Of a DNA stretch of 45,899 nt, positions 7,823 through 34,123 are shown piece by piece. The stretch's first letter is position 1. Each line of letters begins with the position of its first letter. Location: IMG/VR virus record IMGVR_UViG_3300045988_015578, positions 1 through 45,899 of that record; one strand, 5' to 3'. Under the pieces are notes generated by a model, which saw only the letters and a program-made list of their open reading frames with translations, was not told the DNA's origin and did no database searches. This DNA is from a virus. The translations under genes were made by a program, and so were the position numbers.

Positions 7823-9445
7823 ATGGACTTAACGCCTAAACAGAAAGCGTTTGCAGATGAATATATCAAGAATGGCGGAAATGCATCTGATGCCGCGAGG
7901 AAAGCCGGATACGCACCTAAGAGCGCTGATGTAATAGGGCGCGAGAACTTACGGAAACCTACGATTTCTGCATATATAGCCGAAAAACAGTCTCTCATCG
8001 AAAAACAAAAAGGCACTGACATCATGTCACTGGCAGAAATTCAGCAACGCCGTTCTATGATCGCAAGAGGTGAGCTGACTGATTCATTCGGATTCGCCCC
8101 GGACTTCTCCGACCAGCTGAAATCTATGAATGATCTGGAAAAGGCATTAAAAATTAAACAAGAGCAGGAAGAAAAGAAAGCAGCAGAGGAAGCTGCTAGA
8201 AATGCGAAGCCGTACCACATGGACCTGTACAACATTCCTGATTGCTTTCACCGGGCTATTAGAGATATTCGAGATAAGGAACATCTGGAGTATGTATTTA
8301 AGGGCGGACGTGGCTCCACGAAATCAACCACTGTTGGAATGACAATTGTGGAGCTGATGAAAAACAACCATGATATTCATGCAGTTGTTTGCCGTAAGGT
8401 CGGGAACACCATTAAAGATTCTGTGTATAACAAAATCAAATGGGCTATTGGAAAGCAGGAATTTACAGAAGAATTCGATTCTAAGTTATCACCTATGGAG
8501 ATTACGCTAAAAGCAACCGGACAAAAGATATACTTCCGTGGTGCTGATGACCCTGACAAAATTAAATCTATCAACCCTGAGTTCGGCTATATCGGCATTC
8601 TCTGGTTCGAGGAATTAGATCAGTTCGCAGGTACTGAGGAAATTCGTAAGATTGAGCAGTCTGCGATTCGTGGCGGCAACCTTGCATGGATATTTAAGAG
8701 CTTCAATCCGCCAAAAACAATGAATAACTGGGCTAATAAGTATGTTCTTGAACCGAAAGAGAACAGAATAGTTCATTCATCAACTTACTTGGACGTGCCA
8801 AAAGGATGGCTGGGGCAGCCATTTATTGACGAAGCAGAGCATCTGAAAGAAGTCAATCCAAACGCTTACGAACATGAATATATGGGAATTGCGAATGGAA
8901 ACGGCGGTAATGTATTTGAATATTTGGAAATCAGAGATATTACAGATGAAGAAATCAGTCACATGGACAAAATATTTCAGGGGTGTGACTGGGGATTTTT
9001 CCCTGATCCGTATGCTTTTATTCGTTTGTATTACAATCATAACACTGAAAAGATATATCTCATTGATGAAATTTACGAAAATAAATGGAGTAATAGGAAA
9101 TCAGCAGACGAGATTCTAAAAAGAAAATATGATGATTATACTATTACTTGCGATTCTGCGGAACCTAAATCAATCAATGATTATAGAGACTTTGGACTTC
9201 CAGCAAGGGGCGCAATAAAAGGGCCTGGAAGTGTGGAGTATTCTATGAAATGGCTTCAGACAAGGACTATCGTTATTGACCCCAAAAGAACGCCTAATGC
9301 TTACAAAGAGTTTTCAGAGTACGAATATGAAAGAGACAAAGATGGAAACGTTATAAGTGGATATCCTGACGAGAACAACCATTTAGTCGATGCCTGCAGA
9401 TACGCAACAGAATCATTGTGGAGAAGAAGGGGTAACAATGCATAA
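7823..9445 (+). CDS. terL: terminase: small-subunit-like HTH domain fused to a PBSX-type large subunit
   Basis: The N-terminal ~130 aa (LTPKQKAFADEYIKNGGNASDAARKAGY) look like a Terminase_2-type TerS. The rest has Walker A GGRGSTKS and PBSX-like TerL motifs. There is no stop between the two parts. Confidence 0.85.
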   Translation: MDLTPKQKAFADEYIKNGGNASDAARKAGYAPKSADVIGRENLRKPTISAYIAEKQSLIEKQKGTDIMSLAEIQQRRSMIARGELTDSFGFAPDFSDQLKSMNDLEKALKIKQEQEEKKAAEEAARNAKPYHMDLYNIPDCFHRAIRDIRDKEHLEYVFKGGRGSTKSTTVGMTIVELMKNNHDIHAVVCRKVGNTIKDSVYNKIKWAIGKQEFTEEFDSKLSPMEITLKATGQKIYFRGADDPDKIKSINPEFGYIGILWFEELDQFAGTEEIRKIEQSAIRGGNLAWIFKSFNPPKTMNNWANKYVLEPKENRIVHSSTYLDVPKGWLGQPFIDEAEHLKEVNPNAYEHEYMGIANGNGGNVFEYLEIRDITDEEISHMDKIFQGCDWGFFPDPYAFIRLYYNHNTEKIYLIDEIYENKWSNRKSADEILKRKYDDYTITCDSAEPKSINDYRDFGLPARGAIKGPGSVEYSMKWLQTRTIVIDPKRTPNAYKEFSEYEYERDKDGNVISGYPDENNHLVDACRYATESLWRRRGNNA

Positions 9446-10890
9446 TGGGACTTATAACAACACTAAAAAGGTGGTTTAACATGATATTCAAAAAACAAGC
9501 CGAAGAGGACTTCAACATCCAGGCAGCAGAATTTCCAGAGATGGAATCACTGATTAACCGGTGCGCGAACATCTACAGAGGTATGCCGGAATGGTTAGAT
9601 GATAAGAATAATATCAAGACGATTAATTTTGCTAAATCTGTCTGCTCAGAGACAGCTCGGCTCGCAACACTGGCGATCGGAATTCAGATTGACGGCTCTG
9701 CAAGGGCAGCATGGCTACAGGAGCAGATCGATAAAGTATATTTCCAGATTCGGCACTGGGTGGAATATGGCTGCGCTTACGGAACGGTGTTCATTAAGCC
9801 GAACGGCGAGAGCCTTGACGTATTCACTCCGGCAGATGTGATTATTGTTGATTACGATAATCAGGAAATCAAAGGGATTATATTTAAAGATTCGTATACA
9901 GTTGGACGAAAATACTACACACGGCTTGAATATCATAGATTTGCTGAGATTACAATAGATGGCGTAACAACTTATCCGTACTATGTTTCCAACAGAGCTT
10001 ATGTATCAAAATCTCCTCAAAGCATCGGAAACAAGATTGACCTTAAACAGACCAAATGGGCTGAACTCATGGCAGACACGCCGCCGATTCTCAAGGCAAA
10101 CGGTGAGAAACTGGACGGACCTCTGTACGGAGTACTGCGGACACCACAGGCGAATAACGTGGATATCAGTACACCACTTGGACTTCCAATATTCGCAGAA
10201 GCTATCGAAGAGCTGAAAGATCTCGACATTGCATATAGCCGTAATGCCGGAGAGATTTTCGATTCTCAGAAGATTGTCCTGGCAGATGATAGACTGCTGA
10301 TGCCAAGCGGTGCACCTGTATCAGCTATGTCGCCACAGGGTATGGAGAACAGACGTAATGAGATGAACTTACCGCACTTTGTCAAGAATGTATTCGGACA
10401 GGTTGAGAAAGAGTTCTATCAGGAAATCAATCCGGTTCTCAACACAGATACCCGTATAAGCGGCATAAATGCCCTTTTAAGCCAGTTAGGGTACAAGATT
10501 GGATTCTCCAACGGGTACTTTGTTTTTAACGAATCTAGCGGCATTCAGACAGCTACAGGAGTAGAAGCAGAACAGCAGAGGACAGTGCAGTTCGTCAAGG
10601 ATGTAAGGGATAAGTTGGAGTCTTGCCTAGATGAAGTTATTTACGCATTGAACGTTTACGCTGATCTGTACGGGCTTGCACCGGTTGGGGCTTATGAAGT
10701 AAATTACGACTTTGGCGATATCCTATATGTGCGTGAAAACGACCGTGCAAGATGGTGGCAGTATGTGACGACTGGAAAGGTTCCGGCATGGATGTACTTC
10801 GTGAAATTCGAGGGAATGACCGAGGAAGAAGCTAAGGCAATGGTTGAAGAAGCCCAGCCAGACGAACCAAAACTGTTTGGAGATGAGTAA
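9445..10890 (+). CDS. portal protein (SPP1 gp6-like)
   Basis: 481 aa, immediately after the terminase, with the acidic C-terminus typical of portals. Confidence 0.8.
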   Translation: MGLITTLKRWFNMIFKKQAEEDFNIQAAEFPEMESLINRCANIYRGMPEWLDDKNNIKTINFAKSVCSETARLATLAIGIQIDGSARAAWLQEQIDKVYFQIRHWVEYGCAYGTVFIKPNGESLDVFTPADVIIVDYDNQEIKGIIFKDSYTVGRKYYTRLEYHRFAEITIDGVTTYPYYVSNRAYVSKSPQSIGNKIDLKQTKWAELMADTPPILKANGEKLDGPLYGVLRTPQANNVDISTPLGLPIFAEAIEELKDLDIAYSRNAGEIFDSQKIVLADDRLLMPSGAPVSAMSPQGMENRRNEMNLPHFVKNVFGQVEKEFYQEINPVLNTDTRISGINALLSQLGYKIGFSNGYFVFNESSGIQTATGVEAEQQRTVQFVKDVRDKLESCLDEVIYALNVYADLYGLAPVGAYEVNYDFGDILYVRENDRARWWQYVTTGKVPAWMYFVKFEGMTEEEAKAMVEEAQPDEPKLFGDE

Positions 10891-10892
10891 TT

Positions 10893-12122
10893 ATGTTAAG
10901 CCCAGAATATTTACGCCGGATAACAGAGGGCAGTGAACAGATTGCGGAAGAACTGCATCAGTATATCATATCCGAGATCGTGTCTCGAATGATGGCAAGA
11001 ATCGGCAGAGGTGAGGATTATATTCTGACCAATGCTGATGCATGGAGAATCAGAACACTACAGGAATCCGGTGAGTTGCTAGAGGATATTCTGGCAGAAT
11101 TATCCAAATACACCAAACGCGAACAGCAAGAACTTCTTGAAGCGTTTGAAGATGCTGGAATCACTGCAATGAACTATGATGATAAAGTATACAAGGCGGC
11201 AGGATTAAGCCCTGTGCCGCTCGAACAGTCTCCAGCTATGATAAGGCTCATGGAACGGAATATGCTTGCGACCATGGGTGAGTGGAAGAACTTTACACGA
11301 ACCACCGCAAGTGCCGCTCAGAGGCTCTATATTGAGCAATGCGACCTTGCCTATAATCATGTAATGACTGGGGCGGTTGGGTATACACAAGCCATCAAAG
11401 AGGCGGTTAATAACGTTGTGAGTGATGGTGTTACGGTCACATATCCATCCGGCAGGCGTGACACTATCGAAACAGCAGTCGCACGTTCTGTCAGAACTGG
11501 AGTGGCACAGGCTACAGGAGATATATCCCTAAAACGCATGGAAGAAATGGACTGGGATTTAGTTCTAGTCAGTGCCCACATGGGAGCCAGAACGGGCGAT
11601 GGCGGCGAGAATCCGGGTAATCACTCATGGTGGCAAGGCAAGATATACTCTCGTTCTGGCAAGAGTAAGAAATTTCCACCGTTCTCATTGACCGGATATG
11701 GAACGGCAAGCGGACTATCAGGTGTAAACTGTCGACATAGCTTTGGAGCCAGTGACGGAGAATTTAATCCTTATGCGGAATTGTCAGCGCAGGATAAAGC
11801 CAACAAAGGTAAACAATACGAAAAAGAACAGCGGCAACGCACTTATGAGCGAAGAATCCGCAAGACGAAGCGTGAAGTTCTCGGAATGCAAGCGGCGGTT
11901 GATAACTGTAAGGACGAACAGACAAGATTTGTACTCCAACAAGACCTTGACCGGAAGTCTTATCTTTTGCAGAAACAAAATGCTGTATACAAAGATTACT
12001 GCAAAGACAATGATCTAAGAGAACTGCAAGACCGGCTCATGATAGCCAAGTGGAATCGTCAGAACGCCGCAAAAGCCAGAGGAGCGGCAAAACGATATAA
12101 GACAGCAAAGGGGATTGACTGA
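10893..12122 (+). CDS. minor head / head-morphogenesis protein (Mu F / SPP1 gp7 family)
   Basis: Its position after the portal and the motifs SAHMGARTGDGGENPGNHSWWQGK and NCRHSF. Confidence 0.8.
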   Translation: MLSPEYLRRITEGSEQIAEELHQYIISEIVSRMMARIGRGEDYILTNADAWRIRTLQESGELLEDILAELSKYTKREQQELLEAFEDAGITAMNYDDKVYKAAGLSPVPLEQSPAMIRLMERNMLATMGEWKNFTRTTASAAQRLYIEQCDLAYNHVMTGAVGYTQAIKEAVNNVVSDGVTVTYPSGRRDTIETAVARSVRTGVAQATGDISLKRMEEMDWDLVLVSAHMGARTGDGGENPGNHSWWQGKIYSRSGKSKKFPPFSLTGYGTASGLSGVNCRHSFGASDGEFNPYAELSAQDKANKGKQYEKEQRQRTYERRIRKTKREVLGMQAAVDNCKDEQTRFVLQQDLDRKSYLLQKQNAVYKDYCKDNDLRELQDRLMIAKWNRQNAAKARGAAKRYKTAKGID

Positions 12123-12505
12123 TGGACAGATGGGAATATTATAATCCGAATCCTGCTGGGAATCGAGTCGGAGATTGTGCTGTCCGGGCAATATGCAAAG
12201 CAACCGGCTTTGATTGGGAAACGGTATTTACCGGACTGATGGTGCAGGCGTGCGCGCTGTCAGATATGCCGAGTGCAAATTATGTCTGGGGAGCGTATCT
12301 CTACAAGCATGGATACAGGCGCAAACTGATAGAACAGTCAGAACGATATATCTATACAGTCAACGACTTTTGCACAGACCATCCGACAGGCACGTACATT
12401 CTCTGCATAGATGGCCATGTGGTGACAGTACAAGATGGTAAATATTATGATACATGGAATAGCGGAAACGAAATACCGATTTATTATTGGGAAAAAAATG
12501 GATAA
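12122..12505 (+). CDS. conserved phage protein, possible papain-like Cys/His peptidase fold
   Basis: The pattern GDCAVRAI...GHVVTV...DTWNSG suggests a Cys-His-Asp/Asn arrangement. The fold assignment is inference. Confidence 0.55.
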   Translation: MDRWEYYNPNPAGNRVGDCAVRAICKATGFDWETVFTGLMVQACALSDMPSANYVWGAYLYKHGYRRKLIEQSERYIYTVNDFCTDHPTGTYILCIDGHVVTVQDGKYYDTWNSGNEIPIYYWEKNG

Positions 12506-12515
12506 ATATCCACTA

Positions 12516-13070
12516 TTATGTTTTATTGTATTTCCACACAAAACCTTTGTGAGTTCGACGTTCACCACGACAGCAACGACTGATGCTATCTTTTCGACCG
12601 TTTACGTGGTCTGCGGCATCTTCTGCGCAACTCCACTCAGCGATAAAATGATTGTTTAAGTCATATTGATAAACAACTTTTGCTCTTGGACTGTTTCCTC
12701 TCTTATAATTTCCATGAGGAGGGACAGAAGCGGAGCGCAATCCTGTATTTATTGCATGAAAAGTGTTTTCTTGTTTCGTGACCCATTCAAGATTATCAAC
12801 AGTATTGTTTTTCTTGTTCCCGTCAATATGATTCACTACTTCTTTTTGTTCCACGTTCGGAATAAATGCCTCTGCAACAAGGCGGTGAACGAGATAGTTC
12901 TTACGTTTGTAATTAACAACAAGTGTTACTCTATCGTAACCATCGTTTTCAAAAGGAGTCAAATACTTGCATCCTTTATTGTAATTTCTCCTTGCACTAA
13001 TAATATTGCCAAGATTGCTTATTTTGTATAATCCTTCATAACCGACAACATCTTTCCAAATTTCTTGCAT
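12516..13070 (-). CDS. HNH homing endonuclease (NUMOD4 + HNH_3 type)
   Basis: WKDVVGYEGLYKISNLGNI is NUMOD4-like and VNHIDGNKKNNTVDNLEW is an HNH motif. The gene is free-standing on the opposite strand. Confidence 0.85.
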   Translation of the reverse strand: MQEIWKDVVGYEGLYKISNLGNIISARRNYNKGCKYLTPFENDGYDRVTLVVNYKRKNYLVHRLVAEAFIPNVEQKEVVNHIDGNKKNNTVDNLEWVTKQENTFHAINTGLRSASVPPHGNYKRGNSPRAKVVYQYDLNNHFIAEWSCAEDAADHVNGRKDSISRCCRGERRTHKGFVWKYNKT

Positions 13071-13213
13071 AAAAATAACACCTGTCCTTTCAGTGTGCGT
13101 GTCCTATTGATAAATGTACGGAAATCTCTAGGACATGAGACTTTCGGGAGCTACCCTATCCGTACACAAATATTATATCACAAATCAATGAAATATTAAA
13201 GAGGTATATCAAT

Positions 13214-13519
13214 ATGCATATTATTGAAGCAATACAAACAATTCTATCAATTTGTGGTGGCATTTCTATCATAGGAGGGGCAGCAGCTGTAATCCTTAAG
13301 TGGATTGCTCCGGCATTCCGACTCAACAAGCGAGTTGAGACACTGGAAGAACATGATAAGCGAGATTACGAGAGCCTTCAGAGGATTGCAGAGCGTGATT
13401 CATTGATTCTGGAAGTGTTGTCAACCATGTTAGACAGCCAGATCAGTGGGAATAATGTTGAGGAATTAAAAAAAACAAAACAGAAGCTTACAAATTATCT
13501 TGCGCAGAATCAACGTTAG
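13214..13519 (+). CDS. single-pass membrane protein with a coiled coil (BhlA/UviB-like architecture)
   Basis: An N-terminal TM helix (ILSICGGISIIGGAAAVILKWI) is followed by a charged helical region. Confidence 0.55.
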   Translation: MHIIEAIQTILSICGGISIIGGAAAVILKWIAPAFRLNKRVETLEEHDKRDYESLQRIAERDSLILEVLSTMLDSQISGNNVEELKKTKQKLTNYLAQNQR

Positions 13520-13539
13520 CATTAATAAGGGGTATGCTC

Positions 13540-13740
13540 ATGAAATTATATGTGTTCACAAAGAAAGATATAGACAGGTTCTTGATAGAGTGTAATTTCA
13601 CACCAGACGAAGAAAGACTGTTCCGGTTGAGATGCCAGGAGCGCACTCTTGAATACTGCGCTGAACAGATGAACGTGAGTATATCCACGGCGAAACGATT
13701 AAGCCGGAGGGTGAACAATAAAATAATCAAAGTGTGCTAA
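13540..13740 (+). CDS. small sigma-70 region-4-like HTH protein
   Basis: LFRLRCQERTLEYCAEQMNVSISTAKRLSRRVNNKI matches the sigma region-4 HTH pattern. The AAGGGG RBS favours ATG 13540. Confidence 0.55.
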   Translation: MKLYVFTKKDIDRFLIECNFTPDEERLFRLRCQERTLEYCAEQMNVSISTAKRLSRRVNNKIIKVC

Positions 13741-13770
13741 AAGGAGAGGCAATTTGCCCCTCCTTCTTTT
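13741..13770. terminator. bidirectional terminator between convergent genes
   Basis: Stem aaggagaggc/gcccctcctt (one mismatch) with T-runs on both strands. Confidence 0.65.
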
Positions 13771-14503
13771 ATACAAAATCTTCTTTTACAACTCTCTCGA
13801 GAAGATTGACTACATACTCTGGAGGATTGCGTTTACCACCCTCCCAGTTCTCAATACTCCTTTTAGGAATACCATATTTTTCAGAAAAAGCTTGCTGTGT
13901 AAGTCCAGATAACGTTCTGATTTTGTGAAAATCAAGAGGATCTGAAGAAACTTTTTTAGGAAACACATCCTCTTCCTTTACCTGATATGTGAAGAATCCC
14001 ATCGAGGATGGAAAAATTCTAAAATAAAATTTTTCATCGTCATCTTCTTCTATCCAGGTTTGCTGTAAAAATATTTTCGGACACCATTCATCTAATGCAA
14101 ACTTTTCATCTGAATCAGAGTAAACAACATAAGAACATAAATTTCCCGTATCTGATTTCATTCTCTTCATTTCGTTATAGATGAATCTAGTCCTGGCATA
14201 TCTGACTATGCTATACGCTTGTTCTGTTCTGAGTTCTGGGAATAAAGCTTCGATTTGTTTATAAATCTTATTCCACAGACATGCATGGTGTTTACTATCT
14301 AATTCAACTGGTATGTCGATATAACCGCTGCTACGAACTGACAAAAATCGGTACACTACATCAATTATCTCCTGATTTCTAACCGGAGGAATTAATTCTG
14401 TATCATCTGGAAAATCAAATGGCAAAAGGTTTGATTTTTCCTGATTCTCGAGATCATGTTTTACCATGCTCAAGAACTCCTTATATCCGTATTCTTTCAG
14501 CAT
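13769..14503 (-). CDS. protein with a C-terminal XRE-type HTH and an unknown ~190-aa N-terminal domain
   Basis: C-terminus reads IRTLSGLTQQAFSEKYGIPKRSIENWEGGKRNPPEYVVNLL. A GGAGGT RBS inside the upstream gene indicates translational coupling. Confidence 0.75.
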   Translation of the reverse strand: MLKEYGYKEFLSMVKHDLENQEKSNLLPFDFPDDTELIPPVRNQEIIDVVYRFLSVRSSGYIDIPVELDSKHHACLWNKIYKQIEALFPELRTEQAYSIVRYARTRFIYNEMKRMKSDTGNLCSYVVYSDSDEKFALDEWCPKIFLQQTWIEEDDDEKFYFRIFPSSMGFFTYQVKEEDVFPKKVSSDPLDFHKIRTLSGLTQQAFSEKYGIPKRSIENWEGGKRNPPEYVVNLLERVVKEDFV

Positions 14504-14504
14504 C

Positions 14505-14948
14505 TTATTTTACCTCCATCTTTTCTTTGTAATCATTCAGAGCTTCCTTGAATTTTCTTTCGCAAATATTGTTTTCACAATCAATATCACTATTTAACTC
14601 AACGTCTAATTCTCTTGGACTGTAAGCACGATAACGGTTTTCAATAAACCATTTTGCTTCTTTGATCTCATAAATAGTTTCCATGGCTTTTTTCATGCGC
14701 TCCGGCATTTTTTTTCTGCCTTTAGATTCATGAAAATTAATGCAACTGTTTCCATACTCGATCATCTTCTTACGGATATCCTCAGCCCAGGCAATCTGTT
14801 TTGGGCTGCCAACCAGTTCTGGTAATTCTTTACACATATCTTTTGCTTCCTTCCATGCTTTCTTGAGACCGGAGGAAATTGTCATTGCAGATTTCTTAAC
14901 CAGCTCCCATGCTCTTTTCATTATTACTGATAAATTATATTTCTTCAT
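14505..14948 (-). CDS. helical K/E-rich protein of unknown function (147 aa)
   Basis: AAGGAGG lies 7 nt upstream of ATG 14948. The track start 15113 runs into the promoter region. Confidence 0.7.
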   Translation of the reverse strand: MKKYNLSVIMKRAWELVKKSAMTISSGLKKAWKEAKDMCKELPELVGSPKQIAWAEDIRKKMIEYGNSCINFHESKGRKKMPERMKKAMETIYEIKEAKWFIENRYRAYSPRELDVELNSDIDCENNICERKFKEALNDYKEKMEVK

Positions 14949-14990
14949 GTCTTTTTCCTCCTTAGATTCCTTGTTCCTCTTTCTGATATT

Positions 14991-15019
14991 ATAATACCAC
15001 TCAACGGGTGATATGTCAA
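14991..15019 (-). promoter_or_regulatory. near-consensus sigma-A promoter for the antisense two-gene operon
   Basis: On the - strand: TTGACA, a 17-nt spacer, then TATTAT. Two CAAAAAAGT repeats lie upstream. Confidence 0.7.
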
Positions 15020-15096
15020 CACTTTTTTGATACTTTTTTGAACTTCTTGGATTAATACTTATGTGTAAAAATATAATCAGAAAGGTGGTGTGTAAG

Positions 15097-15567
15097 ATGG
15101 CATTATATAACAATCCTTATCAATATAGTTTTGGTGTTCCGGGACAGATGAATCAATTTCAGCAACAGCCTGTCCAGATGCCAGCTCAACCAGTGCAGCA
15201 ACCCCAGCAAAATAATAATGGTATCCTGTGGGTCTCCGGTGAAGTAGGCGCAAAATCCTATCTGGTAGCACCTGGAACAAGTGTTTTACTGATGGATTCA
15301 GAGAGTGAAAAGTTCTACATAAAATCCACAGATGTTTCTGGTATGCCACAGCCGTTACGGACGTTTGAGTATCATGAAGTAGGCACTCAGATGCCGCCTA
15401 AACAGCCTGTTCAGAACATGGACAGTAAATACGTCACCAGACAGGAATACGACGATTTAAAGGGCAAATACGAAGCTATCATAAACCGATTAAATTCTTT
15501 TTCTGAGCCTGTTAGGGCTAATACCGCACAGGAATCAGCGACCAAGGGAGGAAACGCAGATGAGTAA
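15097..15567 (+). CDS. Q/P/N-rich N-terminus plus a conserved beta-rich core; unknown function (cassette gene A)
   Basis: AAAGGTGG RBS. N-terminus reads NNPYQYSFGVPGQMNQFQQQPVQMPAQPVQQPQQNNN. Confidence 0.7.
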   Translation: MALYNNPYQYSFGVPGQMNQFQQQPVQMPAQPVQQPQQNNNGILWVSGEVGAKSYLVAPGTSVLLMDSESEKFYIKSTDVSGMPQPLRTFEYHEVGTQMPPKQPVQNMDSKYVTRQEYDDLKGKYEAIINRLNSFSEPVRANTAQESATKGGNADE

Positions 15568-15781
15568 TCCATTATTTAACGCGCTTGGCGGTGGGATGCC
15601 GCAGGGAAATGGGCCAATGCAGATGATACAACAATTTATGCAGTTTAAACAGAATTTTAAGGGAGACCCGAAAGCAGAAGTTGAGAAGATGTTACAATCT
15701 GGGAAGATTTCCCAACAGCAGCTTAACCAGGTTCAGCAAATGGCAGGGCAATTCCAGCACATGCTGAAAGGAATGAAATAG
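15560..15781 (+). CDS. small Q-rich protein (cassette gene B)
   Basis: Its ATG overlaps the stop of gene A. Sequence includes MQMIQQFMQFKQNF...QQQLNQVQQMAGQFQ. Confidence 0.65.
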   Translation: MSNPLFNALGGGMPQGNGPMQMIQQFMQFKQNFKGDPKAEVEKMLQSGKISQQQLNQVQQMAGQFQHMLKGMK

Positions 15782-15834
15782 TACATTACAATCTGGCCAG
15801 ATTGATGTAAATATACAAAAAGGAGATTATAACT

Positions 15835-16614
15835 ATGGATGGAAATTATAGTTTAGCAGATATTGCCGCTGCTACTGGAAACGGTAGAAATAATGACGGC
15901 ATGTTTGGTGGAGATGGTAGCTGGTGGATTATTGTTTTATTCATTTTTGCTTTCTTCGGATGGGGAAACAACGGCTGGGGCAATAATGGAAACGGCGGCG
16001 GATATGTAGCCACAGCAGCTACTCAGGCAGACATTCAGAGAGGATTTGACAACTCCGCAGTGATCAGCAAGCTTGACGGAATCAATAGTGGTCTGTGTGA
16101 TGGCTTCTATGCCATGAATAATGGTATGCTTACCGGATTCAATGGAATCAACACAAACATCATGCAGACTGGCTTCGGTATCCAGCAGGCTATTAATGCT
16201 GACACTGTAGCTAATATGCAGAATACCAATGCGCTCCAGGCACAGCTTGCAAACTGCTGCTGTGAAACAAGGGAAGCAATCCAGGGTGTAAACTACAATA
16301 TGGCACAGAATACCTGTGCATTGCAGAACACCATGAACAGCAACACAAGAGATATTATCGACAGCCAGAATGCAGGGACAAGAGCGATTCTTGACTATCT
16401 CTGCAATGAAAAGATTTCTAACTTGCAGGCTGAAAACAATGACCTCAGACGTGCTGCATCTCAGGATCGCCAGAGTGCACTTCTCACAACTGCAATGGCT
16501 TCACAGACACAGCAGCTTATTAATGCGATTAATCCGGCACCGATTCCGGCATATCAGGTTCCTAACCCGAACACATATTACGGATGCGGATGCAACACCG
16601 GATGTAATTGTTAA
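15835..16614 (+). CDS. G/N/W-rich membrane-anchored protein with a Cys-rich C-terminus (cassette gene C)
   Basis: AAAGGAG RBS. Features: a WWIIVLFIFAFFGWGNNGWGNNGNGGG segment, an internal CCCE, and the C-terminus YYGCGCNTGCNC. Confidence 0.7.
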   Translation: MDGNYSLADIAAATGNGRNNDGMFGGDGSWWIIVLFIFAFFGWGNNGWGNNGNGGGYVATAATQADIQRGFDNSAVISKLDGINSGLCDGFYAMNNGMLTGFNGINTNIMQTGFGIQQAINADTVANMQNTNALQAQLANCCCETREAIQGVNYNMAQNTCALQNTMNSNTRDIIDSQNAGTRAILDYLCNEKISNLQAENNDLRRAASQDRQSALLTTAMASQTQQLINAINPAPIPAYQVPNPNTYYGCGCNTGCNC

Positions 16615-16678
16615 CAACTTCATATCGAGAGTATCTTTCGATTGATTTCGGATGTCGGCTTATGCCGTATTACACAGA

Positions 16679-16703
16679 GGGGCAGGCTGAGACCTGTCCT
16701 TTT
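16679..16703 (+). terminator. rho-independent terminator after cassette gene C
   Basis: Stem gggcagg/cctgtcc (one G.U pair) followed by TTTT. Confidence 0.55.
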
Positions 16704-16725
16704 GTGATATGAAAGGAGTATTTTT

Positions 16726-17148
16726 ATGGCAGAATTCACAAATGTAGCTGCTCAGACTGTAGCAGCAAATGGAAACGTAGTATTTTCAAACACAGCAGTT
16801 AAAGGTTCTAACTGTATTCAGCACAGAGAGGGAAGCGGAATTATTACGCTGAGAGGACTGACTAATCAGTGCAAAGCGAGATTCTTCGTGGATTTTTCTG
16901 GCAATATCGCAATTCCAGCAGGCGGCACTGCCGGAGCTATTTCTCTGGCTATTGCAATCTCTGGCGAACCTGTATTATCTTCACAGATGATTTCCACACC
17001 GACAGCAGTAGACCAGTATAACAATGTGTCCTCTGGTATCTATATTGATGTACCACGCGGATGTTGCGTTAATATTGCAGTAGAGAATACCAGTGATCAG
17101 GCTATTTCTGTTGCAAATGCGAACATTGTTGTAACCAGAGAAGCATAG
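16726..17148 (+). CDS. small beta-rich protein resembling BclA-C-terminal / C1q-TNF-like domains (cassette gene D)
   Basis: AAAGGAG RBS. The sequence alternates hydrophobic residues in a beta-strand pattern (for example GAISLAIAISGEPV and NANIVVTR). The fold assignment is inference. Confidence 0.65.
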   Translation: MAEFTNVAAQTVAANGNVVFSNTAVKGSNCIQHREGSGIITLRGLTNQCKARFFVDFSGNIAIPAGGTAGAISLAIAISGEPVLSSQMISTPTAVDQYNNVSSGIYIDVPRGCCVNIAVENTSDQAISVANANIVVTREA

Positions 17149-17159
17149 GAGGTGTGATT

Positions 17160-17714
17160 ATGAGAGACATTAAAGACTTATGCGCAAGAATCGAAGATGA
17201 GCTTTCCAAAATCGCTGATAATGGACTGACCACCGGAAATCTGGAAATGACATACAAGTTGATTGACATGTACAAAGATATCAAGAATACGCAGTACTGG
17301 GATAAGAAAGTAGAGTATTACAACGCTGTCCTTGATGAAATGCGTAGTGGATACAATGACGATTACAGCGAGCGCGGAAGAAAACGCGACAGTATGGGGA
17401 GATACAGCTCAAATGACGGCAGAATGATGCCGGATTACGATCGGGGCAGTTCTTATGCCAGACGTGGGGAACATTACGTCAGAGGGCATTACAGCCGTTC
17501 TGATGGACGGGATGCTTATGACGATTACATGACGCAGAAGCAAAGCTATCGTTCCGGCAAGTCTGAAGACTGCAAGAGGAAGATGCTTGCCGCTCTGGAA
17601 GAACATCTGGACGAACTTACAACAGAAATGAGCGATATGTCCAAGGATGCAGAGTGCCGGGAAGAACGTGATCTTGTCAAGAGATACGTGGAAAAGCTCC
17701 GGGATATGCTCTAA
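17160..17714 (+). CDS. helical protein with an R/D/Y/S-rich disordered centre (cassette gene E)
   Basis: AGGAGG lies 7 nt upstream of ATG 17160. The centre reads RGRKRDSMGRYSSNDGRMMPDYDRGSSYARRGEHYVRGHYSRSDGRDAYDDY. Confidence 0.7.
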   Translation: MRDIKDLCARIEDELSKIADNGLTTGNLEMTYKLIDMYKDIKNTQYWDKKVEYYNAVLDEMRSGYNDDYSERGRKRDSMGRYSSNDGRMMPDYDRGSSYARRGEHYVRGHYSRSDGRDAYDDYMTQKQSYRSGKSEDCKRKMLAALEEHLDELTTEMSDMSKDAECREERDLVKRYVEKLRDML

Positions 17715-17721
17715 TTAGCTA

Positions 17722-17761
17722 AAACATGTACCACAACTTTTTGGATACTTTGTGGTAAAAT
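17722..17761 (+). promoter_or_regulatory. late-promoter motif, copy 2
   Basis: The same 20-mer as 7455-7474, followed at identical spacing by TGTGG and the -10 hexamer TAAAAT. Confidence 0.6.
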
Positions 17762-18062
17762 ATATTCATAGGGAAGATTCGGAAGATTCGTAAGTGGTTG
17801 ACGCCACTTGACATAGACATTTTTTCATTGATTCCTCCTTTCTTGGGTACGTGTCCTTAACAGAAACAGGTTCGGGCGGAATCTGGAGGTTGAAAAGCGG
17901 ATGCAATTTCCGACACGTATCATTACTGTCTATATGACTTGCTCGCTCGCATAGGCAGTACGCACCTCCTTGTAAAAGGTAAATGGGCGGACGGATGCCC
18001 GAAACAACTCGTGGCAGGCATGACACGTTAAACACCTTGCTAACCCGGGAATCCGGGTTATG

Positions 18063-18131
18063 TGGAATGTACGCTAGTGGAAAACTGACAGAGTCGCGCT
18101 CTGGTCTCCGGTTCGATTCCGGGCGTTCCGC
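18063..18131 (+). tRNA. tRNA-like element 1 (non-canonical; probably not a decoding tRNA)
   Basis: Acceptor tggaatg/cgttccg (two G.U pairs), a D-loop AGTGG, and a T-arm tccgg-TTCGATT-ccggg. The anticodon arm is cagag-tcgcg-ctctg, with only a 5-nt loop. Total length is 69 nt. Confidence 0.5.
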
Positions 18132-18422
18132 TTTAATCCGCTTAGAGTTAAGCTGTTTGTATACAGGCGGTCTATGTCTCAGGTGGATTTACGCATGAGC
18201 GTAAACGTACAACTCACTAGGCGTTTGCGTAAAAAACTTTTTAGAGAGATGAGACCACGGGCCGTGAGAAGTGATAGTCGGCAATTCTAAAAGAACCATC
18301 TAGTTCATGTGTTTTACGATGGAAAGGTTAATGCTTATCTGGATATTTTCATCCGGTCCGAAAGCATGTGATGTGGGAATCAACCCAGTTTCTTTTCAGA
18401 GAACTGGCCGTTATAGGCGGTA

Positions 18423-18490
18423 CGGAATGTAGCTCAGTGGTAGATCGCACTGTAAATGTGAGGTCGCAGGTTCGATTCCTGCCTTTCCGA
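18423..18490 (+). tRNA. tRNA-like element 2 (short anticodon arm; the best loop reading, CU-GUA-AA, would be Tyr)
   Basis: Acceptor cggaatg/ctttccg (one T-T mismatch), TAGCTCAGTGGTAGATCG D-arm, and a perfect T-arm gcagg-TTCGATT-cctgc. The region between the D- and T-arms is 4 nt shorter than in a standard tRNA. Confidence 0.6.
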
Positions 18491-18568
18491 TTACCTTGCC
18501 AGTGGTCTAACTGGCTTAATCCATTTACCTGCGGCGGCAGGTCAATAAACACGACCAGGAGGATGTAT

Positions 18569-19201
18569 ATGCAGAAACTTATTGACACACTTAAATCATT
18601 TGGAATTGAAATCCCGGAGGACAAGCAGGCAGATGTGAAGAAAGCACTCTCTGAGCATTACAAGAATGCCAAAGAAGTAGCGAAAACCCTGTCAAAAGTT
18701 GAGGGAGAACGTGACGACTGGAAAGAACGCGCCGAGACAGCAGAAGAAACCTTGAAAGGGTTTGACGGTATCGACCCGGCAAATATCCAGACAGAGCTTG
18801 CCGGATGGAAGAAAAAAGCCGAGGATGCAGAGAAAGAATTCAATGCAAAAATCTACGACCGCGATTTTTCAGATGCGCTTAAAACAGCACTTGATGATGT
18901 TAAGTTTTCCAGTGAAGCTGCAAAGAAATCTGTTATGGCAGACATCAAGGAAGCAGGATTGAAGCTGAAAGACGGTAAAATCCTTGGACTGAATGATTTG
19001 ATTGAGCAGATGAAGCAGTCTGACGCATCCGCTTTTGTAGATGAATCTCAGCAACAGGCTCAGCAGAATCAGGCAAGGTTTACTACTCATGTTGGACAGC
19101 AGCAGACACCGGGGAACATGACAAAGAAAGATATCGAAGCAATCAAAGACCCGTCCGAGAGACAGGCAGCAATTGCTCAGAATATCCAGTTATTCCAGTG
19201 A
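18569..19201 (+). CDS. scaffolding protein (phage GP20-like)
   Basis: AGGAGG lies 6 nt upstream of ATG 18569. The protein is helical and E/K-rich and sits before the capsid gene. The track start 18368 runs into the tRNA-like element. Confidence 0.8.
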   Translation: MQKLIDTLKSFGIEIPEDKQADVKKALSEHYKNAKEVAKTLSKVEGERDDWKERAETAEETLKGFDGIDPANIQTELAGWKKKAEDAEKEFNAKIYDRDFSDALKTALDDVKFSSEAAKKSVMADIKEAGLKLKDGKILGLNDLIEQMKQSDASAFVDESQQQAQQNQARFTTHVGQQQTPGNMTKKDIEAIKDPSERQAAIAQNIQLFQ

Positions 19202-19212
19202 TTTTTTACACC

Positions 19213-19278
19213 GACTATATGCCAGAGTATAGCCGCTAACCCAACGCCTTAATAGTTATGGGTAGAAAGGATTTTTTT
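19213..19278 (+). promoter_or_regulatory. conserved 5' leader element, copy 1 (upstream of the major capsid gene)
   Basis: A hairpin whose 3' arm is TATAGCC, then GCTAACC...GCCTT...AGTTA..GG.AGAAAGGA...TATG. It shares the 13-mer ATAGCCGCTAACC with 22795-22807. Confidence 0.6.
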
Positions 19279-20445
19279 ATGCCAGCAAAAACAAATCTTA
19301 TTATGACTAATGATATTCATGTCACAGCACGTGAGATTGATTTTGTTACCAGATTCGAAAGAAACTGGGAACACTTACGTGAAATCCTTGGTATCATGCG
19401 TCCTATCAAAAAACAGCCGGGTGCTGTACTGAAATCTAAGTACGCAGAGGGTACTTTACAGAGTGGACTTGTTGGTGAGGGTGAGGAAATCCCTTACAGC
19501 AAGTTTACTGTAAAAGAAAAGAACTATGCGGAAATGACTATCGAAAAGTACGCAAAGGCTGTATCTATCGAAGCAATCAAGGATCACGGTTATGAGAACG
19601 CTGTTCAGATGACTGATGACGAATTCCTTTTCCAGCTTCAGACTGATGTTACCGGCAGATTCTATGACTATCTGAAAACCGGTACGCTTACTTCCACAGA
19701 AACTACATTCCAGATGGCTCTGGCAATGGCTAAAGGCCGTGTTGAGAACAAATTCAAACAAATGCACAGAAACGTGACTGGCGTTGTTGGATTCGTGAAC
19801 ATTCTGGACGTATATGAATATCTCGGAGCAGCTGAGATCACCATTCAGAACCAGTTCGGATTCCAGTACATGAAGGACTTTATGGGATTTAATACAATCT
19901 TCTTACTGTCCGACAGCGAGATTCCAAGAGGGCAGGTTATCGCTACTCCTGTCGAGAACATCGTTCTGTACTATGTTGACCCGAACGAATCTGACTTCGC
20001 AAGAGCAGGTCTTGTATACACCGTATCTGGTGAGACAAACCTGATCGGATTCCATACGCAGGGCAACTACCACACAGCAGTGTCTGAGGCGTTCGCGGTT
20101 ATGGGACTTACTCTTTTTGCGGAGTACATTGATGCAATTGCAGTAATTACCATTGATGAGACACCAGCACTTGGCACTCTGGTAGTAACATCTGCGGAAG
20201 GAACAGCAACTGGTGATACAAAAATCACTGTAAATCCGGCTAAGGAAAATGCCGGCAATGTGTATAAATACAAAGTTGCAGCAGAAGCAGTAGCTGTTGG
20301 ATATGGACAGAATCTCAGAAACTGGAGTACTTGGGATGGAAAAGCCGATATCACAGCAGCAACCGGACAGAAGATCACAGTGGTTGAGTGTGATGGAACA
20401 TACAAAGCACTGAATGCCGGAAGTGCAAGCGTGACAGCAAAATGA
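19279..20445 (+). CDS. major capsid protein with a C-terminal Ig-like domain
   Basis: Follows the scaffold gene. The GAAAGGA RBS favours ATG 19279. The C-terminal ~90 aa are beta-rich and Big-like. Confidence 0.8.
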   Translation: MPAKTNLIMTNDIHVTAREIDFVTRFERNWEHLREILGIMRPIKKQPGAVLKSKYAEGTLQSGLVGEGEEIPYSKFTVKEKNYAEMTIEKYAKAVSIEAIKDHGYENAVQMTDDEFLFQLQTDVTGRFYDYLKTGTLTSTETTFQMALAMAKGRVENKFKQMHRNVTGVVGFVNILDVYEYLGAAEITIQNQFGFQYMKDFMGFNTIFLLSDSEIPRGQVIATPVENIVLYYVDPNESDFARAGLVYTVSGETNLIGFHTQGNYHTAVSEAFAVMGLTLFAEYIDAIAVITIDETPALGTLVVTSAEGTATGDTKITVNPAKENAGNVYKYKVAAEAVAVGYGQNLRNWSTWDGKADITAATGQKITVVECDGTYKALNAGSASVTAK

Positions 20446-24385: not shown

Positions 24386-27112
24386 ATGGCTGCTGATGGC
24401 TCAGTCATTATTGATACCAGAATGGACACGTCTGGTGTACAGAACGGCGTGTCAGCAATCAAACAGTCATTTAACGGCCTTGGGAGTGCTGTAAAAAAAA
24501 TCGGTCTGCTGATTGGTGGGGCGTTTGCAGTTGGCAAGTTAGTGCAGTTCGGAAAAGAGTGCGTGGAGCTTGGCTCTGATCTGACAGAAGTACAGAACGT
24601 GGTCGATGTTACATTTACCACCATGTCGGATAAAGTCAATGAATTTGCAAAGAATGCCATGACTTCTGCTGGCCTATCTGAAACTATGGCAAAAAGGTAT
24701 GTCGGCACGTTCGGCGCAATGTCCAAGTCGTTCGGATTCTCCGAAGCGCAGGCTTATGATATGTCAACGGCTTTGACGCAGCTGACTGGTGACGTGGCAT
24801 CATTCTATAACATCAGTCAGGACTTGGCTTATATCAAGCTGAAATCAGTGTTTACGGGCGAAACGGAAACGCTGAAAGATTTGGGCGTGGTCCTTACGCA
24901 AAGCGCACTTGATCAATATGCACTTGCCAATGGCTACGGAAAAACCACATCTGAAATGACAGAACAGGAAAAAGTGGCTCTCCGTCTGGCTTTTGTGCAG
25001 AAGCAGCTATCTGCCGCATCTGGAGACTTCATCCGTACTTCTGACAGCTGGGCAAACCAGGTCAGAGTTATGCAGTTACAGTTACAGTCTCTCAAGGCAA
25101 CAGTTGGGCAGGGATTGATTAATATTTTTACGCCTATACTGAAAGTAATTAATATCTTGCTCGGTAAGCTGGCAACTCTGGCAAATGCCTTCAAAAGTTT
25201 TACAGAACTAATAACCGGCAAGAAATCCTCCGGTCAGACAAGCGGAAGTGGAGCAGGCCTCACAGGCGATGCAAGTGGCGTGCAAGATACGGCAGATGCT
25301 TACGGACAGGCAGCAGACAATGCCGGCAAGTTAGCAGATTCTACAGAAGATGTAGCCGATGCAACAAAAGATGCGGCAAAAGCGGCGAAAGGATATCTTA
25401 GCCCACTTGATGAGATTAATCGGTATTCTACACAGGATATATCATCAACAGCAAGTAAAACTCCGTCGACATCCGGTAGCGGCAGTGGCGGTGTCGGAAC
25501 ATCTCTTCCGAGCGCAGTCAGCAACGTAGATTACGGAAAGGTAGCTGAGGGCGAAACCGCTCTGGATAAGATGAGCAAATCAGCCGAAAAACTTGCAAAG
25601 CTCCTTAAAAAGCTCTGGAAACCATTCCAGGACGCCTGGAAGAAAGAGGGCAAGAACACCATTGACGCGGCAAACATTGCTTTGTCGGGAATCGCAAAGC
25701 TCGCTAAAAGTGTAGGTAAAAGCTTGGTTGAAGTTTGGACAAATGGCACAGGCACAACGATGCTCACAACCATGCTGAGGATTGCTCAGAACGTACTTAA
25801 GACTATCGGTAACATTGCATCCGGTTTCGCAGATGCTTGGAATAAGAACAATGTCGGAACACAGATTATACAGAATATTGCAGATGCTCTTGTGGTAGTT
25901 ATGCAGTTTGTTGAAAAGATTGCAGAGGATACAGCGACATGGGCGGCAAATCTGGACTTCTATCCATTACTGGAATCTATCAGTAATCTGACAGCGACTT
26001 TTGCTCCAATTCTGGAATCCATTGGAAATGTACTTGAATGGATTTACAAAAATATTGTTCTTCCGATGCTAACATGGATTATTGAGGTAGGGCTTCCTGC
26101 AGTAATTAACCTAGTGTCAAAAGTAGCTACGTTTCTCGCCGATCATCAATCAATCGTTGAAGCATTCGGTGCAGCTCTGATTGGGGCGTTCGCGGCAGCA
26201 AAGATTGCAGGATTGGCATCGATAATCATTAAAAACGTGTCTGGAATCGCTATGGCCGCAAAGGGGCTTATCGCACTAATGACTGGTACGGGTGGCATCA
26301 TGGGTGGTATCAAAGCTATTGCAACAGCTATCGGACCAGGTGGAGTCTTTGTCCTTGCAGTCGGCGCATGTATTGCGATTGGCGTTTTGCTGTACAAAAA
26401 CTGGGACAAAATCAAAGAAATGGCTGGAAAGGTATGGGATTGGATTTCTAATAAAACGAGACGTTTTGTTGAGGATATTGGAAATAAACTCAGAGGTCTA
26501 GCTACCAAAATGACGACCATTTGGGGTAACATAAAGGCCAGCGCACATCAGAAATGGAATGCTATATGGTCTACCGTTAGTGGTTTTGCTGAAAGAATCA
26601 AGAACGCTATTGTTGATAAATTCACATCCGCTAAAAACACTGTAGTCAATGTATTTGATGGAATGAGAGATGCCATTAGGTCTGTTCTGAACAATATCAT
26701 AAGTGTTGTAAACGGTGCCATCAGTAAAGTGAATGGGGCTATTAGCGCAGTTGAATCGGCATTCTCATTCGGGCCATGGAAAGTGCCAACGCCATTCGGC
26801 TCAAAAACTATCGGGTTCAGAGCTACTTTTCCGCGAGTTTCAACAGTCCCGTATCTGGCAAAAGGTGCAGTTATCCCACCAAGAAGCGAGTTCCTTGCGG
26901 TTCTGGGCGATCAGAAGCAAGGCAACAACATCGAGACGCCGGAAGCTCTGCTCAGAAAGATCGTCCGGGAAGAAACAGCAGGACGGCAGACCGGCGGCGG
27001 AAGTTACCGATTTACGGCGCAGATCAATCGCAGAACCCTGTTTGACGAGATGATGAAAGAAGCACAGATGAGACGAGATACAAGCGGTAGAAACCCGTTT
27101 GAGATGGCATAG
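24386..27112 (+). CDS. tape measure protein
   Basis: 908 aa, helical with hydrophobic segments, in the canonical position. Confidence 0.85.
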   Translation: MAADGSVIIDTRMDTSGVQNGVSAIKQSFNGLGSAVKKIGLLIGGAFAVGKLVQFGKECVELGSDLTEVQNVVDVTFTTMSDKVNEFAKNAMTSAGLSETMAKRYVGTFGAMSKSFGFSEAQAYDMSTALTQLTGDVASFYNISQDLAYIKLKSVFTGETETLKDLGVVLTQSALDQYALANGYGKTTSEMTEQEKVALRLAFVQKQLSAASGDFIRTSDSWANQVRVMQLQLQSLKATVGQGLINIFTPILKVINILLGKLATLANAFKSFTELITGKKSSGQTSGSGAGLTGDASGVQDTADAYGQAADNAGKLADSTEDVADATKDAAKAAKGYLSPLDEINRYSTQDISSTASKTPSTSGSGSGGVGTSLPSAVSNVDYGKVAEGETALDKMSKSAEKLAKLLKKLWKPFQDAWKKEGKNTIDAANIALSGIAKLAKSVGKSLVEVWTNGTGTTMLTTMLRIAQNVLKTIGNIASGFADAWNKNNVGTQIIQNIADALVVVMQFVEKIAEDTATWAANLDFYPLLESISNLTATFAPILESIGNVLEWIYKNIVLPMLTWIIEVGLPAVINLVSKVATFLADHQSIVEAFGAALIGAFAAAKIAGLASIIIKNVSGIAMAAKGLIALMTGTGGIMGGIKAIATAIGPGGVFVLAVGACIAIGVLLYKNWDKIKEMAGKVWDWISNKTRRFVEDIGNKLRGLATKMTTIWGNIKASAHQKWNAIWSTVSGFAERIKNAIVDKFTSAKNTVVNVFDGMRDAIRSVLNNIISVVNGAISKVNGAISAVESAFSFGPWKVPTPFGSKTIGFRATFPRVSTVPYLAKGAVIPPRSEFLAVLGDQKQGNNIETPEALLRKIVREETAGRQTGGGSYRFTAQINRRTLFDEMMKEAQMRRDTSGRNPFEMA

Positions 27113-31959: not shown

Positions 31960-32027
31960 TTTCATAATCACTTTACGATTCCAAATTAAATAGTAACCCT
32001 CTGAGCATATTAACTAGAAGTGCCATT

Positions 32028-32270: not shown

Positions 32271-32386
32271 TTCGTAAAAATTCCCACTTCCCATTTAGTT
32301 CATTAAAAATTTCATAAAAAGCTACCAATGGAGTGTGCGTTCTCCACGCAGAAACGTGGATTAAAATGTGAAAGGAGTTGACAGAA

Positions 32387-34033: not shown

Positions 34034-34088
34034 GAATTAAGCCTCTTGGAATTAATCTTTGGGGCTTTTGCACCAAATAATGTTCTGA

Positions 34089-34117: not shown

Positions 34118-34123
34118 ATCAAT

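Follow-up and report, generated by a model that had tools for sequence, protein, structure and literature searches.

C1q-type domains form trimers that are displayed at the fibre tips of F-ENA, ExsF trimers bind the terminal peptide of the fibre, and CC motifs mark the ENA connectors (PMC12357932). Here we analysed a stretch of viral DNA of 45,899 nucleotides (positions 1 to 45,899 of IMG/VR record IMGVR_UViG_3300045988_015578; this whole stretch is called the window), which represents a temperate siphophage genome or prophage and in which five co-directional open reading frames (ORFs), named A to E, span positions 15097-17714, one of them (D) encoding a stand-alone protein predicted with high confidence to adopt the C1q/TNF jelly-roll fold. 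These five genes are the core of a conserved module of seven to eight genes (u127, sig68, A, B, C, D or D2, E or DUF7841, and F), which is mobile and optional, belongs to phages of gut anaerobes and lies embedded in or appended to their late genes; within it, C and a beta-rich partner form the core. As to what the module does, we tentatively prefer the explanation that it is made late and builds one multi-protein assembly around C that acts at a membrane, a possibility that still has the balance against it and whose interactions, oligomeric state, timing, location and purpose we all infer.

Comparison with the closest described proteins shows both resemblance and distance. D has the same predicted jelly-roll fold as the C-terminal domains (CTDs) of BclA and F-BclA and as ExsFA and BxpB, it has the size of the stand-alone ExsFA and BxpB (template modelling (TM) scores of 0.67-0.77) and, like these proteins, it lacks a signal peptide and has Cys-rich partners encoded next to it. 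It is nevertheless only 12-15% identical to them, it has no Pfam BclA_C or C1q match, and it lacks both the collagen-like stalk and the exosporium leader of BclA; moreover its genes belong to phages, some of which infect hosts that are not known to sporulate, and the trimeric state and fibre docking of D are putative. With ENA fibres the module has in common small beta-rich subunits, conserved Cys motifs (CC in D, CxxxCxxC in D2) and C1q-like tip proteins (PMC12357932), whereas its stalk candidate, C, is predicted to be alpha-helical and not a beta-sandwich polymer or collagen. We found no paper describing the module and no proteomic data in the literature for any phage that carries it; searches on DUF7841, on the virion proteomics of Clostridium perfringens phages and on the crAss 'spike protein' returned nothing relevant, the crAss paper being concerned with tail spikes and not with C. 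We regard the module as outside the known kinds of phage gene sets, as the features tested do not fit head decoration, holin or spanin lysis, defence or spore coat, and the sole curated family that touches it, DUF7841, is a domain of unknown function.

Gene content and linkage of the module

The five genes are all on the plus strand and are real genes, because each of them matches a PHROG family and because C and D have large numbers of relatives. Protein A (15097-15567, 156 aa; PHROG 21718, E 3.9e-39) is composed of a Q/N/P/Y-rich N-terminus (12 Q, 6 N and 6 P in residues 1-45), a conserved core of about 55 aa and a helix-like C-terminal segment. The start of B (15560-15781, 73 aa, 21% Q and 12% M; PHROG 22984, E 4.7e-27) overlaps the end of A, and C (15835-16614, 259 aa; PHROG 16490, E 4.7e-58) and D (16726-17148, 140 aa) follow. 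In protein E (17154-17714, 186 aa, with a GTG start; PHROG 28802, E 2e-63) the two terminal segments are conserved and enclose a low-complexity centre rich in R/S/Y/D/G, which has a conserved RRDSMGRYS-type motif (13 R, 11 S, 10 Y and 11 D in residues 60-135). The ORFs and residue counts thus agree with the cassette and the compositions reported in the first-pass annotation. The PHROG families matched by the five proteins (E 4e-27 to 2e-63) have no known function, the families found for window proteins being 21718, 22984, 16490, 20016, 28802 and 3754, and A to E gave no Pfam or NCBIfam family at E ≤ 1. The statement that none of the five resembles a standard virion or replication protein was borne out by searches of Pfam, NCBIfam, PHROGs, PADLOC and PDB sequences; in the latter, single sequences or profiles of D, D2, u127, E, the DUF7841-type protein and C all remained without a match. 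Reading of the sequences revealed no signal peptide or lipobox in any module protein of the window, so that the partners of C must meet it in the cytoplasm, and GXX repeats are missing from A to E.

Relatives of these proteins are abundant. At E ≤ 0.001 the databases hold 2,966 relatives of D and at least 7,997 of C (7,997 of the 8,000 scored candidates). C has 2,127 representative clusters at this threshold, clustered at 50% identity; single C clusters at 90% identity comprise thousands of sequences from human, rodent, lemur, rabbit and ruminant gut samples. At least 589 IMG/VR stretches encode a relative of the window D (E ≤ 1e-3), the best 80 being 95-98% identical. The protein clusters to which relatives of the module belong are all named 'hypothetical protein'.

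Linkage of the genes was followed with local hidden Markov models built iteratively from the window and its first relatives. With a profile of C, GTDB species genomes yielded 80 loci. Their labels include Lachnospiraceae, Oscillospiraceae, Bacilli and Erysipelotrichaceae, and many of the loci are evidently phage contigs inside metagenome-assembled genomes (MAGs), whose labels are unreliable as host assignments. Essentially all 80 loci present the order (sig)-A-B-C-(D or D2)-E-(F), and the same order is kept in 137 viral contigs that were retrieved independently through D or D2. When D was the anchor, C and E were present in 67 of 67 contigs and A, B, sig and u127 in 66 of 67, and when D2 was the anchor the series sig-A-B-C-D2-E-F was found in 70 of 70; both sets are phylogenetically narrow, and the D-anchored one contains near-identical relatives only and says little on diversity. 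There are 77 A ORFs adjoining B and C, 81 B ORFs located between A and C every time and 69 E ORFs each following D or D2. A lack of co-occurrence outside this genome, which had been set beforehand as the refuting outcome for the cassette, is therefore clearly contradicted by about 80 loci and 137 viral contigs. The linkage claimed for the five genes is real, but the unit is larger than was proposed since it also includes u127, sig68 and, elsewhere, F.

Comparison of phages whose head genes are unrelated shows much stronger conservation of C and D than of A, B and E. In several phages (loci L002, L003, L005, L007 and L009 compared with L001) C is 73-85% and D 59-81% identical to the window proteins, and for A, B and E the identity is only 20-30%. 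The diverged Dulem virus 35, a relative with the same five genes in the same place, presents the reverse pattern, and because the identities of C/D and of A/B/E run in opposite ways the sequences indicate recombination between module halves. Two apparent fusions, P0248 (the C tail plus D) and P0446 (the N-terminal half of C plus a GDSL-type domain), look like read-through or chimeric assembly and were not used as evidence.

The additional members were characterised in the same manner. The 127-aa u127 (12122-12505, plus strand; PHROG 3754, without known function) occurs in 42 other loci, each time directly before A or directly after E. Although no Pfam or PDB sequence match was obtained for it, C19, H99 and D110 do not vary in 29 sequences with 24-62% identity to the window protein, nor do N8, N10, D18, R22 and W123, and the protein is predicted from this pattern to be a papain-like Cys-His-Asp enzyme, either a peptidase or transglutaminase-like. 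The 68-aa sig68 (13534-13740, plus strand) is a candidate helix-turn-helix (HTH) protein of the sigma-70 region 4 or GerE-like type: it matches PHROG 1190 (sigma factor, E 6.6e-6), reaches E 0.006 and 16.5 bits with Pfam Sigma70_r4, below the cut-off of 24.1, and its homologue in locus L250 has a weak precomputed GerE match. Such sig proteins, of 65-90 aa, are encoded upstream of A in 56 of 85 loci, and in 66 of 67 and 70 of 70 of the independently retrieved loci. F is a small HExxH protein with weak metallopeptidase matches. Its gene follows E in 11 of 67 near-identical IMG/VR relatives (L090-L169, 95-98% identical in D), and no trace of it was seen in the window, the gap between E and the scaffold gene included.

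Proteins of the Pfam family DUF7841 (PF25223), which consist of a conserved DGTxGPHW domain plus an Arg/Tyr/Glu-rich tail, take the place of E after D2 in 11 Bacillota loci (L008 11150-11797 and 10 similar ones), and accompany C in crAss-like phages; the cr53_1 protein labelled 'RNA polymerase sigma factor/ubiquitin-like' (L087 3000-3635) belongs to this family. The window E does not match Pfam DUF7841, and its hhalign probability against a DUF7841-type profile is 0.4%; the two types have in common only an Arg/Tyr/Asp-rich low-complexity stretch.

Proteins C and D

The AlphaFold2 (AF2) model of D, obtained from a 44-sequence alignment, is all beta (predicted local distance difference test (pLDDT) 90.2, predicted TM score 0.82), with the jelly-roll domain covering residues 1-140, and the resemblance to BclA C-terminal and C1q-like domains suspected in the first-pass annotation was upheld by it. 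Foldseek comparison with PDB placed the F-BclA CTD (9h38; E 9e-8, TM 0.75) at the top, followed by ExsFA (7r1m), BxpB (8d02), ExsF (9h3d), EDA-A1 (1rj7), the BclA CTD (1wck and 2z5w), 4-1BBL and C1q-type domains, the matches to 9h38, 7r1m, 8d02, 9h3d, 1rj7 and 1wck ranging from E 9e-8 to 1e-5 and from TM 0.67 to 0.77. Among viral models (BFVD) the best matches are stand-alone phage proteins of 130-142 aa (TM 0.80-0.88), and C1q/collagen proteins of giant viruses come next. The CC pair (113-114) and H33 are invariant in D. At the sequence level a profile of D matched nothing in PDB. In other phages D is replaced by D2, a Cys-rich protein of about 130 aa with an N-terminal CxxxCxxC, to which D has no detectable relation (hhalign probability 0.4%), and the proteins of 136 and 146 aa that occupy the corresponding slot in crAss-like phages likewise show no detectable relation to either of them, all hhalign probabilities being below 1%. 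When PDB sequences were searched with profiles of D and D2, neither an ENA protein nor any other relative was detected.

The structural neighbours of D bear directly on one of the proposals of the first-pass annotation, a modification of the spore coat or exosporium, for which the proteins would be made in a sporulating lysogen and deposited on the spore surface. The solved structures closest to D (F-BclA, ExsFA/BxpB and BclA) are indeed exosporium or appendage proteins, the module proteins are Cys-rich, as is often the case at the spore surface, and without signal peptides, and many of the hosts are Clostridia. Some looser, putative analogies are the GerE-like size of the HTH protein, a GerQ-like layout of A and the likeness of a papain-like enzyme to the transglutaminase Tgl. 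Set against these points, however, neither Pfam nor NCBIfam searches matched any Cot, Exs, Cde, Bcl, YjcZ, GerQ or CotG family, which leaves the supposed YjcZ-like and CotG-like resemblances without support; no collagen-like region and no exosporium leader is present; and the heavily sampled Bacillus phages yielded no match. Butyrivibrio virus Ceridwen, Faecalibacterium-labelled MAGs and crAss-like phages with true C homologues also speak against a spore-specific role, since the module or its core is found in phages of hosts that are not known to sporulate, namely Butyrivibrio fibrisolvens, genomes labelled Faecalibacterium and Subdoligranulum, a Negativicute and the Bacteroidales hosts of crAss-like phages. 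We therefore regard deposition on spores as highly improbable.

Protein C has no counterpart of known function among the families searched and is best described by its features. An acidic N-tail precedes a Trp-flanked hydrophobic segment of 14 residues (30-43), WWIIVLFIFAFFGW, which is flanked by Gly/Asn/Trp repeats and followed by a Gly/Asn/Trp linker; the protein also contains a PIPAYxVPNPN motif and 10 cysteines in total, with an invariant CCC at 141-143 and a C-terminal CxCxxxCxC tail, GCGCNTGCNC. Both Cys clusters are invariant, and conservation extends to the hydrophobic segment. The model shows this segment as a short helix, together with two long ones predicted at 74-138 and 146-232 (pLDDT 47), the first of which is strongly amphipathic (period 3.6-3.7, z 6.3). 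In the 193 homologues compared, the median length of the Trp-flanked hydrophobic core is 14 residues; 186 of them have an acidic N-tail, and downstream of the core 126 have an acidic and only 9 a basic flank. The hydrophobic segment, its flanking repeats and the CCC announced by the first-pass annotation are present, but the supposed anchor measures only about 14 residues and its flanks are acidic; it is not a textbook signal-anchor, and its likeness to a fusion peptide or to a buried plug for oligomerisation is no weaker. Of eight proteins encoded between 12122 and 17714 that were checked, the strongly hydrophobic ones are C and a 101-aa protein with an N-terminal transmembrane segment plus coiled coil (13214-13519).

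C resembles in layout the i-spanin Rz, with an N-terminal hydrophobic segment, long helices and conserved Cys, and class I fusion proteins likewise combine an N-proximal hydrophobic segment, two long helices and conserved Cys; as with spanins, its gene is often found beside lysis genes. This raises the question of whether C is a holin-like or spanin-like membrane disruptor, with the other proteins regulating it and the module complementing the endolysin. The module often adjoins endolysin or holin genes in Bacillota and crAss-like phages, and no holin-like ORF could be recognised beside the GH25-type endolysin of the window (31959-34545 searched), both of which would favour such a role. The likeness is architectural only, however: C matches no holin or spanin family (Pfam, PHROGs), its hydrophobic core of 14 residues is short and bounded by acidic instead of basic residues, it has no C-terminal anchor, and no lipoprotein partner is encoded, as A, B, D and E lack a lipobox. 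Most hosts are furthermore monoderm and have no need of a spanin, phages that carry the module often have an annotated holin too, and C is far more conserved than is usual for holins. A lysis accessory in the strict sense is thus very doubtful, and C was rejected as the holin of this phage on account of its 259 aa, its 14-residue core without basic flanks and the missing holin family match. A defence system was likewise rejected for want of a significant PADLOC match, the search having returned for C an insignificant match to the tail of ZorA (E 0.007, 13 bits) and nothing else for A to E.

Genomic position, hosts and possible roles

The position of the module varies greatly among phages. The nearest large upstream gene in 62 loci encodes a cell-wall hydrolase in about 16-18 (Amidase_2 in 8, M23, CHAP and NlpC/P60 in 2 each, Amidase_3 and GH25 in 1 each; these counts are approximate, as family counts were combined with the reading of clusters), a tail-fibre-like protein in about 11, the minor head protein in 7 and a holin in some. 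Downstream, the nearest genes include 8 integrases, 6 scaffolds and, after D2, the 11-member DUF7841 family, and 58 of 68 upstream neighbours are on the strand of the module. The head-module setting given in the first-pass annotation is consequently peculiar to this lineage, and we discarded the idea of fixed head-module genes, given that the gene for the minor head protein precedes the module in only 7 of 62 loci and a scaffold gene follows it in only 6. In Butyrivibrio virus Ceridwen the module follows the endolysin, in the C. perfringens phage XP41-N3 it is located between lysis genes with an antirepressor and Gam/Erf replication genes, and in L250, a bacterial contig of 107 kb, it is the last phage unit before the host genes, that is, at the prophage/host junction.

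These positions after the endolysin, beside the integrase or at the host junction are typical sites of conversion genes in Gram-positive prophages, and the module shares with morons and lysogenic-conversion cassettes that it is optional, also among close relatives, and mosaic. One may then suppose that it is expressed from the prophage under its own HTH regulator and that C, D and the other proteins alter the surface of the lysogen or block other phages at its envelope. In agreement with such lysogenic conversion or superinfection exclusion, the module carries a small HTH protein of its own, and in the window an inserted XRE-type regulator with a near-consensus promoter precedes the cassette. 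Several observations are nonetheless difficult to accommodate. With seven to eight genes the module is much larger than morons and large for an exclusion system, it extends across host phyla, and it also resides within structural operons and in crAss-like genomes; no integrase was seen near it in the annotated stretches examined of crAss-like and C. perfringens phages. PADLOC offers no significant match, the scan detected no plus-strand promoter for the cassette, and the prophage of the window already has a conventional exclusion candidate in the Sie-like gene beside its integrase. On these grounds we consider conversion unlikely.

The range of hosts is restricted to gut anaerobes but crosses phyla. 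Matches to C among 50,697 phage records are to gut or rumen phages only, none being found in phages of Bacillus, Staphylococcus, Streptococcus, Listeria or Lactococcus; hosts of the GTDB loci are mostly Bacillota, and C homologues are present in genomes labelled Faecalibacterium, Subdoligranulum and Anaerovibrio. True C homologues exist in crAss-like phages (hmmsearch E 1e-34 to 2e-35); these homologues share the hydrophobic segment, the CCC and the C-terminal Cys tail, and depositors labelled them 'spike protein/glycoprotein'; their neighbours are holin or lysis genes, a DUF7841 protein, small HExxH proteins and unrelated proteins of 136-187 aa. In cr116_1 the block is found between the L,D-carboxypeptidase and capsid genes, whereas in the related crAss001 the module is absent from the scanned 50 kb that hold the structural and lysis genes, and because of this difference and of the varied positions we conclude that the module is optional and portable.

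The spike or fibre-like labels of the crAss homologues invite consideration of an optional virion appendage, in which C would form helical stalks that are Cys-cross-linked on contact with oxygen, D or D2 would be distal heads, C1q-like, adhesive or receptor-binding, and the other members would serve as chaperones of assembly and as a protease for maturation. Such a structure would recall the hairy nap of spores or the tips of their fibres, on the capsid or tail of a phage. The constant location of the module in or beside late or structural genes on the same strand, the frequency of C1q/TNF domains at the fibre tips of phages and giant viruses, the lack of signal peptides and a distribution confined to phages of strict anaerobes, for which cross-linking set off by oxygen would be sensible, can all be quoted in its favour. 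A specific attachment site is hard to imagine, however, for the same C (73-85% identical) in phages with unrelated heads and in podovirus-like crAss phages; crAss001 completes its virions without the module, the module of XP41-N3 is away from the structural genes, and a hydrophobic segment has no obvious role in a fibre. Such an appendage is in our judgement distinctly unlikely.

Returning to the late-made assembly around C at a membrane, its steps could be as follows. The short Trp/Gly-flanked hydrophobic segment of C would insert into a membrane or be buried against it, and the central CCC and the C-terminal CxCxxxCxC would staple oligomers through disulfides or metal. A C1q/TNF-like trimer of D, or the Cys-rich D2 in other phages, may dock on C, a step modelled by analogy on Bacillus spores, where ExsF/BclA-type C1q domains form the caps or anchors of fibres. 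Chaperone or matrix functions would fall to A and B, which are rich in Gln/Met, and to the Arg/Tyr-rich E; u127, with its predicted Cys-His-Asp site, and the putative zincin F would process or cross-link other components, and sig68 would be the DNA-binding regulator of the module. The site of action would most likely be the envelope of the producing cell near lysis, or else a target membrane; a target of this kind would explain both the portability of the module across virion types and host phyla and its frequent proximity to lysis genes.

A number of points weigh against this assembly. No homologue of known function stands behind any of its steps. The AF2 monomer model of C is poor, with a pLDDT of 47, and helix 146-232 has no significant periodicity. 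Conventional membrane insertion of a segment of about 14 residues without a basic flank is doubtful. A docking mode on C common to all partners is an assumption, because D, D2 and the crAss slot proteins are not detectably related. Promoter and terminator signals are weak and speak neither for nor against a separate regulation of the module, and the position at prophage ends fits a set of lysogenic-conversion genes equally well.

A broader version of the assembly, which we hold to be fairly unlikely, would see in the module an undescribed portable machine common to the gut phages of Bacillota and Bacteroidota. This machine would comprise a cysteine-stapled helical core with a fusion-peptide-like segment and interchangeable beta-rich heads, C1q-like in the window, assembled by prion-like (Gln-rich) and Arg/Tyr-rich partners together with a Cys-His-Asp enzyme and a zincin. 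It would be the phage counterpart of an exosporium nap or of a class I fusion apparatus, and would act on a membrane or as an oxygen-hardened coat that aids the transmission of phages of strict anaerobes.

Whichever role applies, the module crosses the deepest divide among gut phage hosts, that between Bacillota and Bacteroidota, and a conserved block of seven to eight genes moving as a unit among thousands of gut phages implies one coherent function that has no name in current phage biology. It also extends the stand-alone C1q/ExsF-type fold, as predicted for D, from spore surfaces to phages. Three kinds of cultured carriers make the question testable, namely C. perfringens phages, Butyrivibrio virus Ceridwen and a crAss-like phage of B. 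uniformis with a C homologue, and the Anaerobutyricum prophage itself can serve as well.

The window and its DNA and RNA elements

In the window the cassette lies within about 6 kb of non-standard content between the genes for the minor head protein (10893-12122) and the scaffold (~18560-19201). The large terminase (7823-9445) and portal (9445-10890) are encoded upstream, and the major head protein (19258-20445), tape measure protein (24386-27112), tail protein (27497-31477) and GH25-type endolysin (32378-34033) downstream. The integrase (34546-35721, minus strand) is adjoined by the Sie-like superinfection-exclusion gene (35777-36346, minus strand; PHROG 8545, E 2.6e-19), after which the primase/helicase follows in window order. 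The host suggested for this phage is Anaerobutyricum hallii, because an identical B protein is found in A. hallii genomes. An HNH/NUMOD-type homing endonuclease gene (12516-13070, minus strand) is inserted inside the module and, together with a reverse-strand pair made of an HTH_3 (XRE-type) protein and a protein without assignment (13769-14503 and 14505-15113, minus strand), it separates u127 and sig68 from A to E; the close relative MT835739 has neither the endonuclease nor the pair.

Scanning of positions 13000-19300 with a sigma-70-type model returned promoter-like and terminator-like sites in numbers not above those of shuffled sequences (9 against 14.1 expected and 4 against 5.0 expected, respectively), and no plus-strand promoter or terminator of the cassette passed. 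The sole near-consensus promoter (TTGACA-17-TATTAT, 11/12) is on the minus strand at 15019-14991, facing away from the cassette, and by its position drives the inserted HTH_3 pair. Accordingly, of the -10 element attributed to the cassette the TATAAT itself is there, at 15073-15078 with the ribosome-binding site GAAAGGTGG, but the scan did not recognise a promoter around it. The perfect palindrome of 16 bp reported between B and C, CAATCTGG/CCAGATTG, is present at 15789-15804 and as RNA folds into a weak hairpin (-7 kcal/mol, z -3.0). For the internal terminator that had been proposed, the intergenic region between C and D does contain a stable plus-strand RNA hairpin (16675-16704; minimum free energy -17.7 kcal/mol, z -3.6, with 0 of 200 shuffles equally stable), but the terminator scan did not call it; its U-run is partly within the stem, and it is a possible attenuator or processing/stability element.

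The non-coding stretch of 850 nt between E and the scaffold gene contains a RAGATH-21 RNA (17846-17921, plus strand; Rfam RF03097, 90 bits against a gathering score of 70), which is at the same place in two relatives (L001 10502-10578 and L004 11784-11868). Other module-carrying phages have a Hammerhead_II ribozyme (L007 5310-5378, minus strand) and, in the case of Ceridwen, a RAGATH-18 RNA (L086 341-413). Directly upstream of the scaffold gene a tRNA-Tyr is encoded (18423-18490), and about 300 nt before it, at ~18100-18125, a tRNA-like T-arm, GGTTCGATTCCGGGCG, for which ARAGORN made no call, is possibly the remnant of a decayed tRNA.

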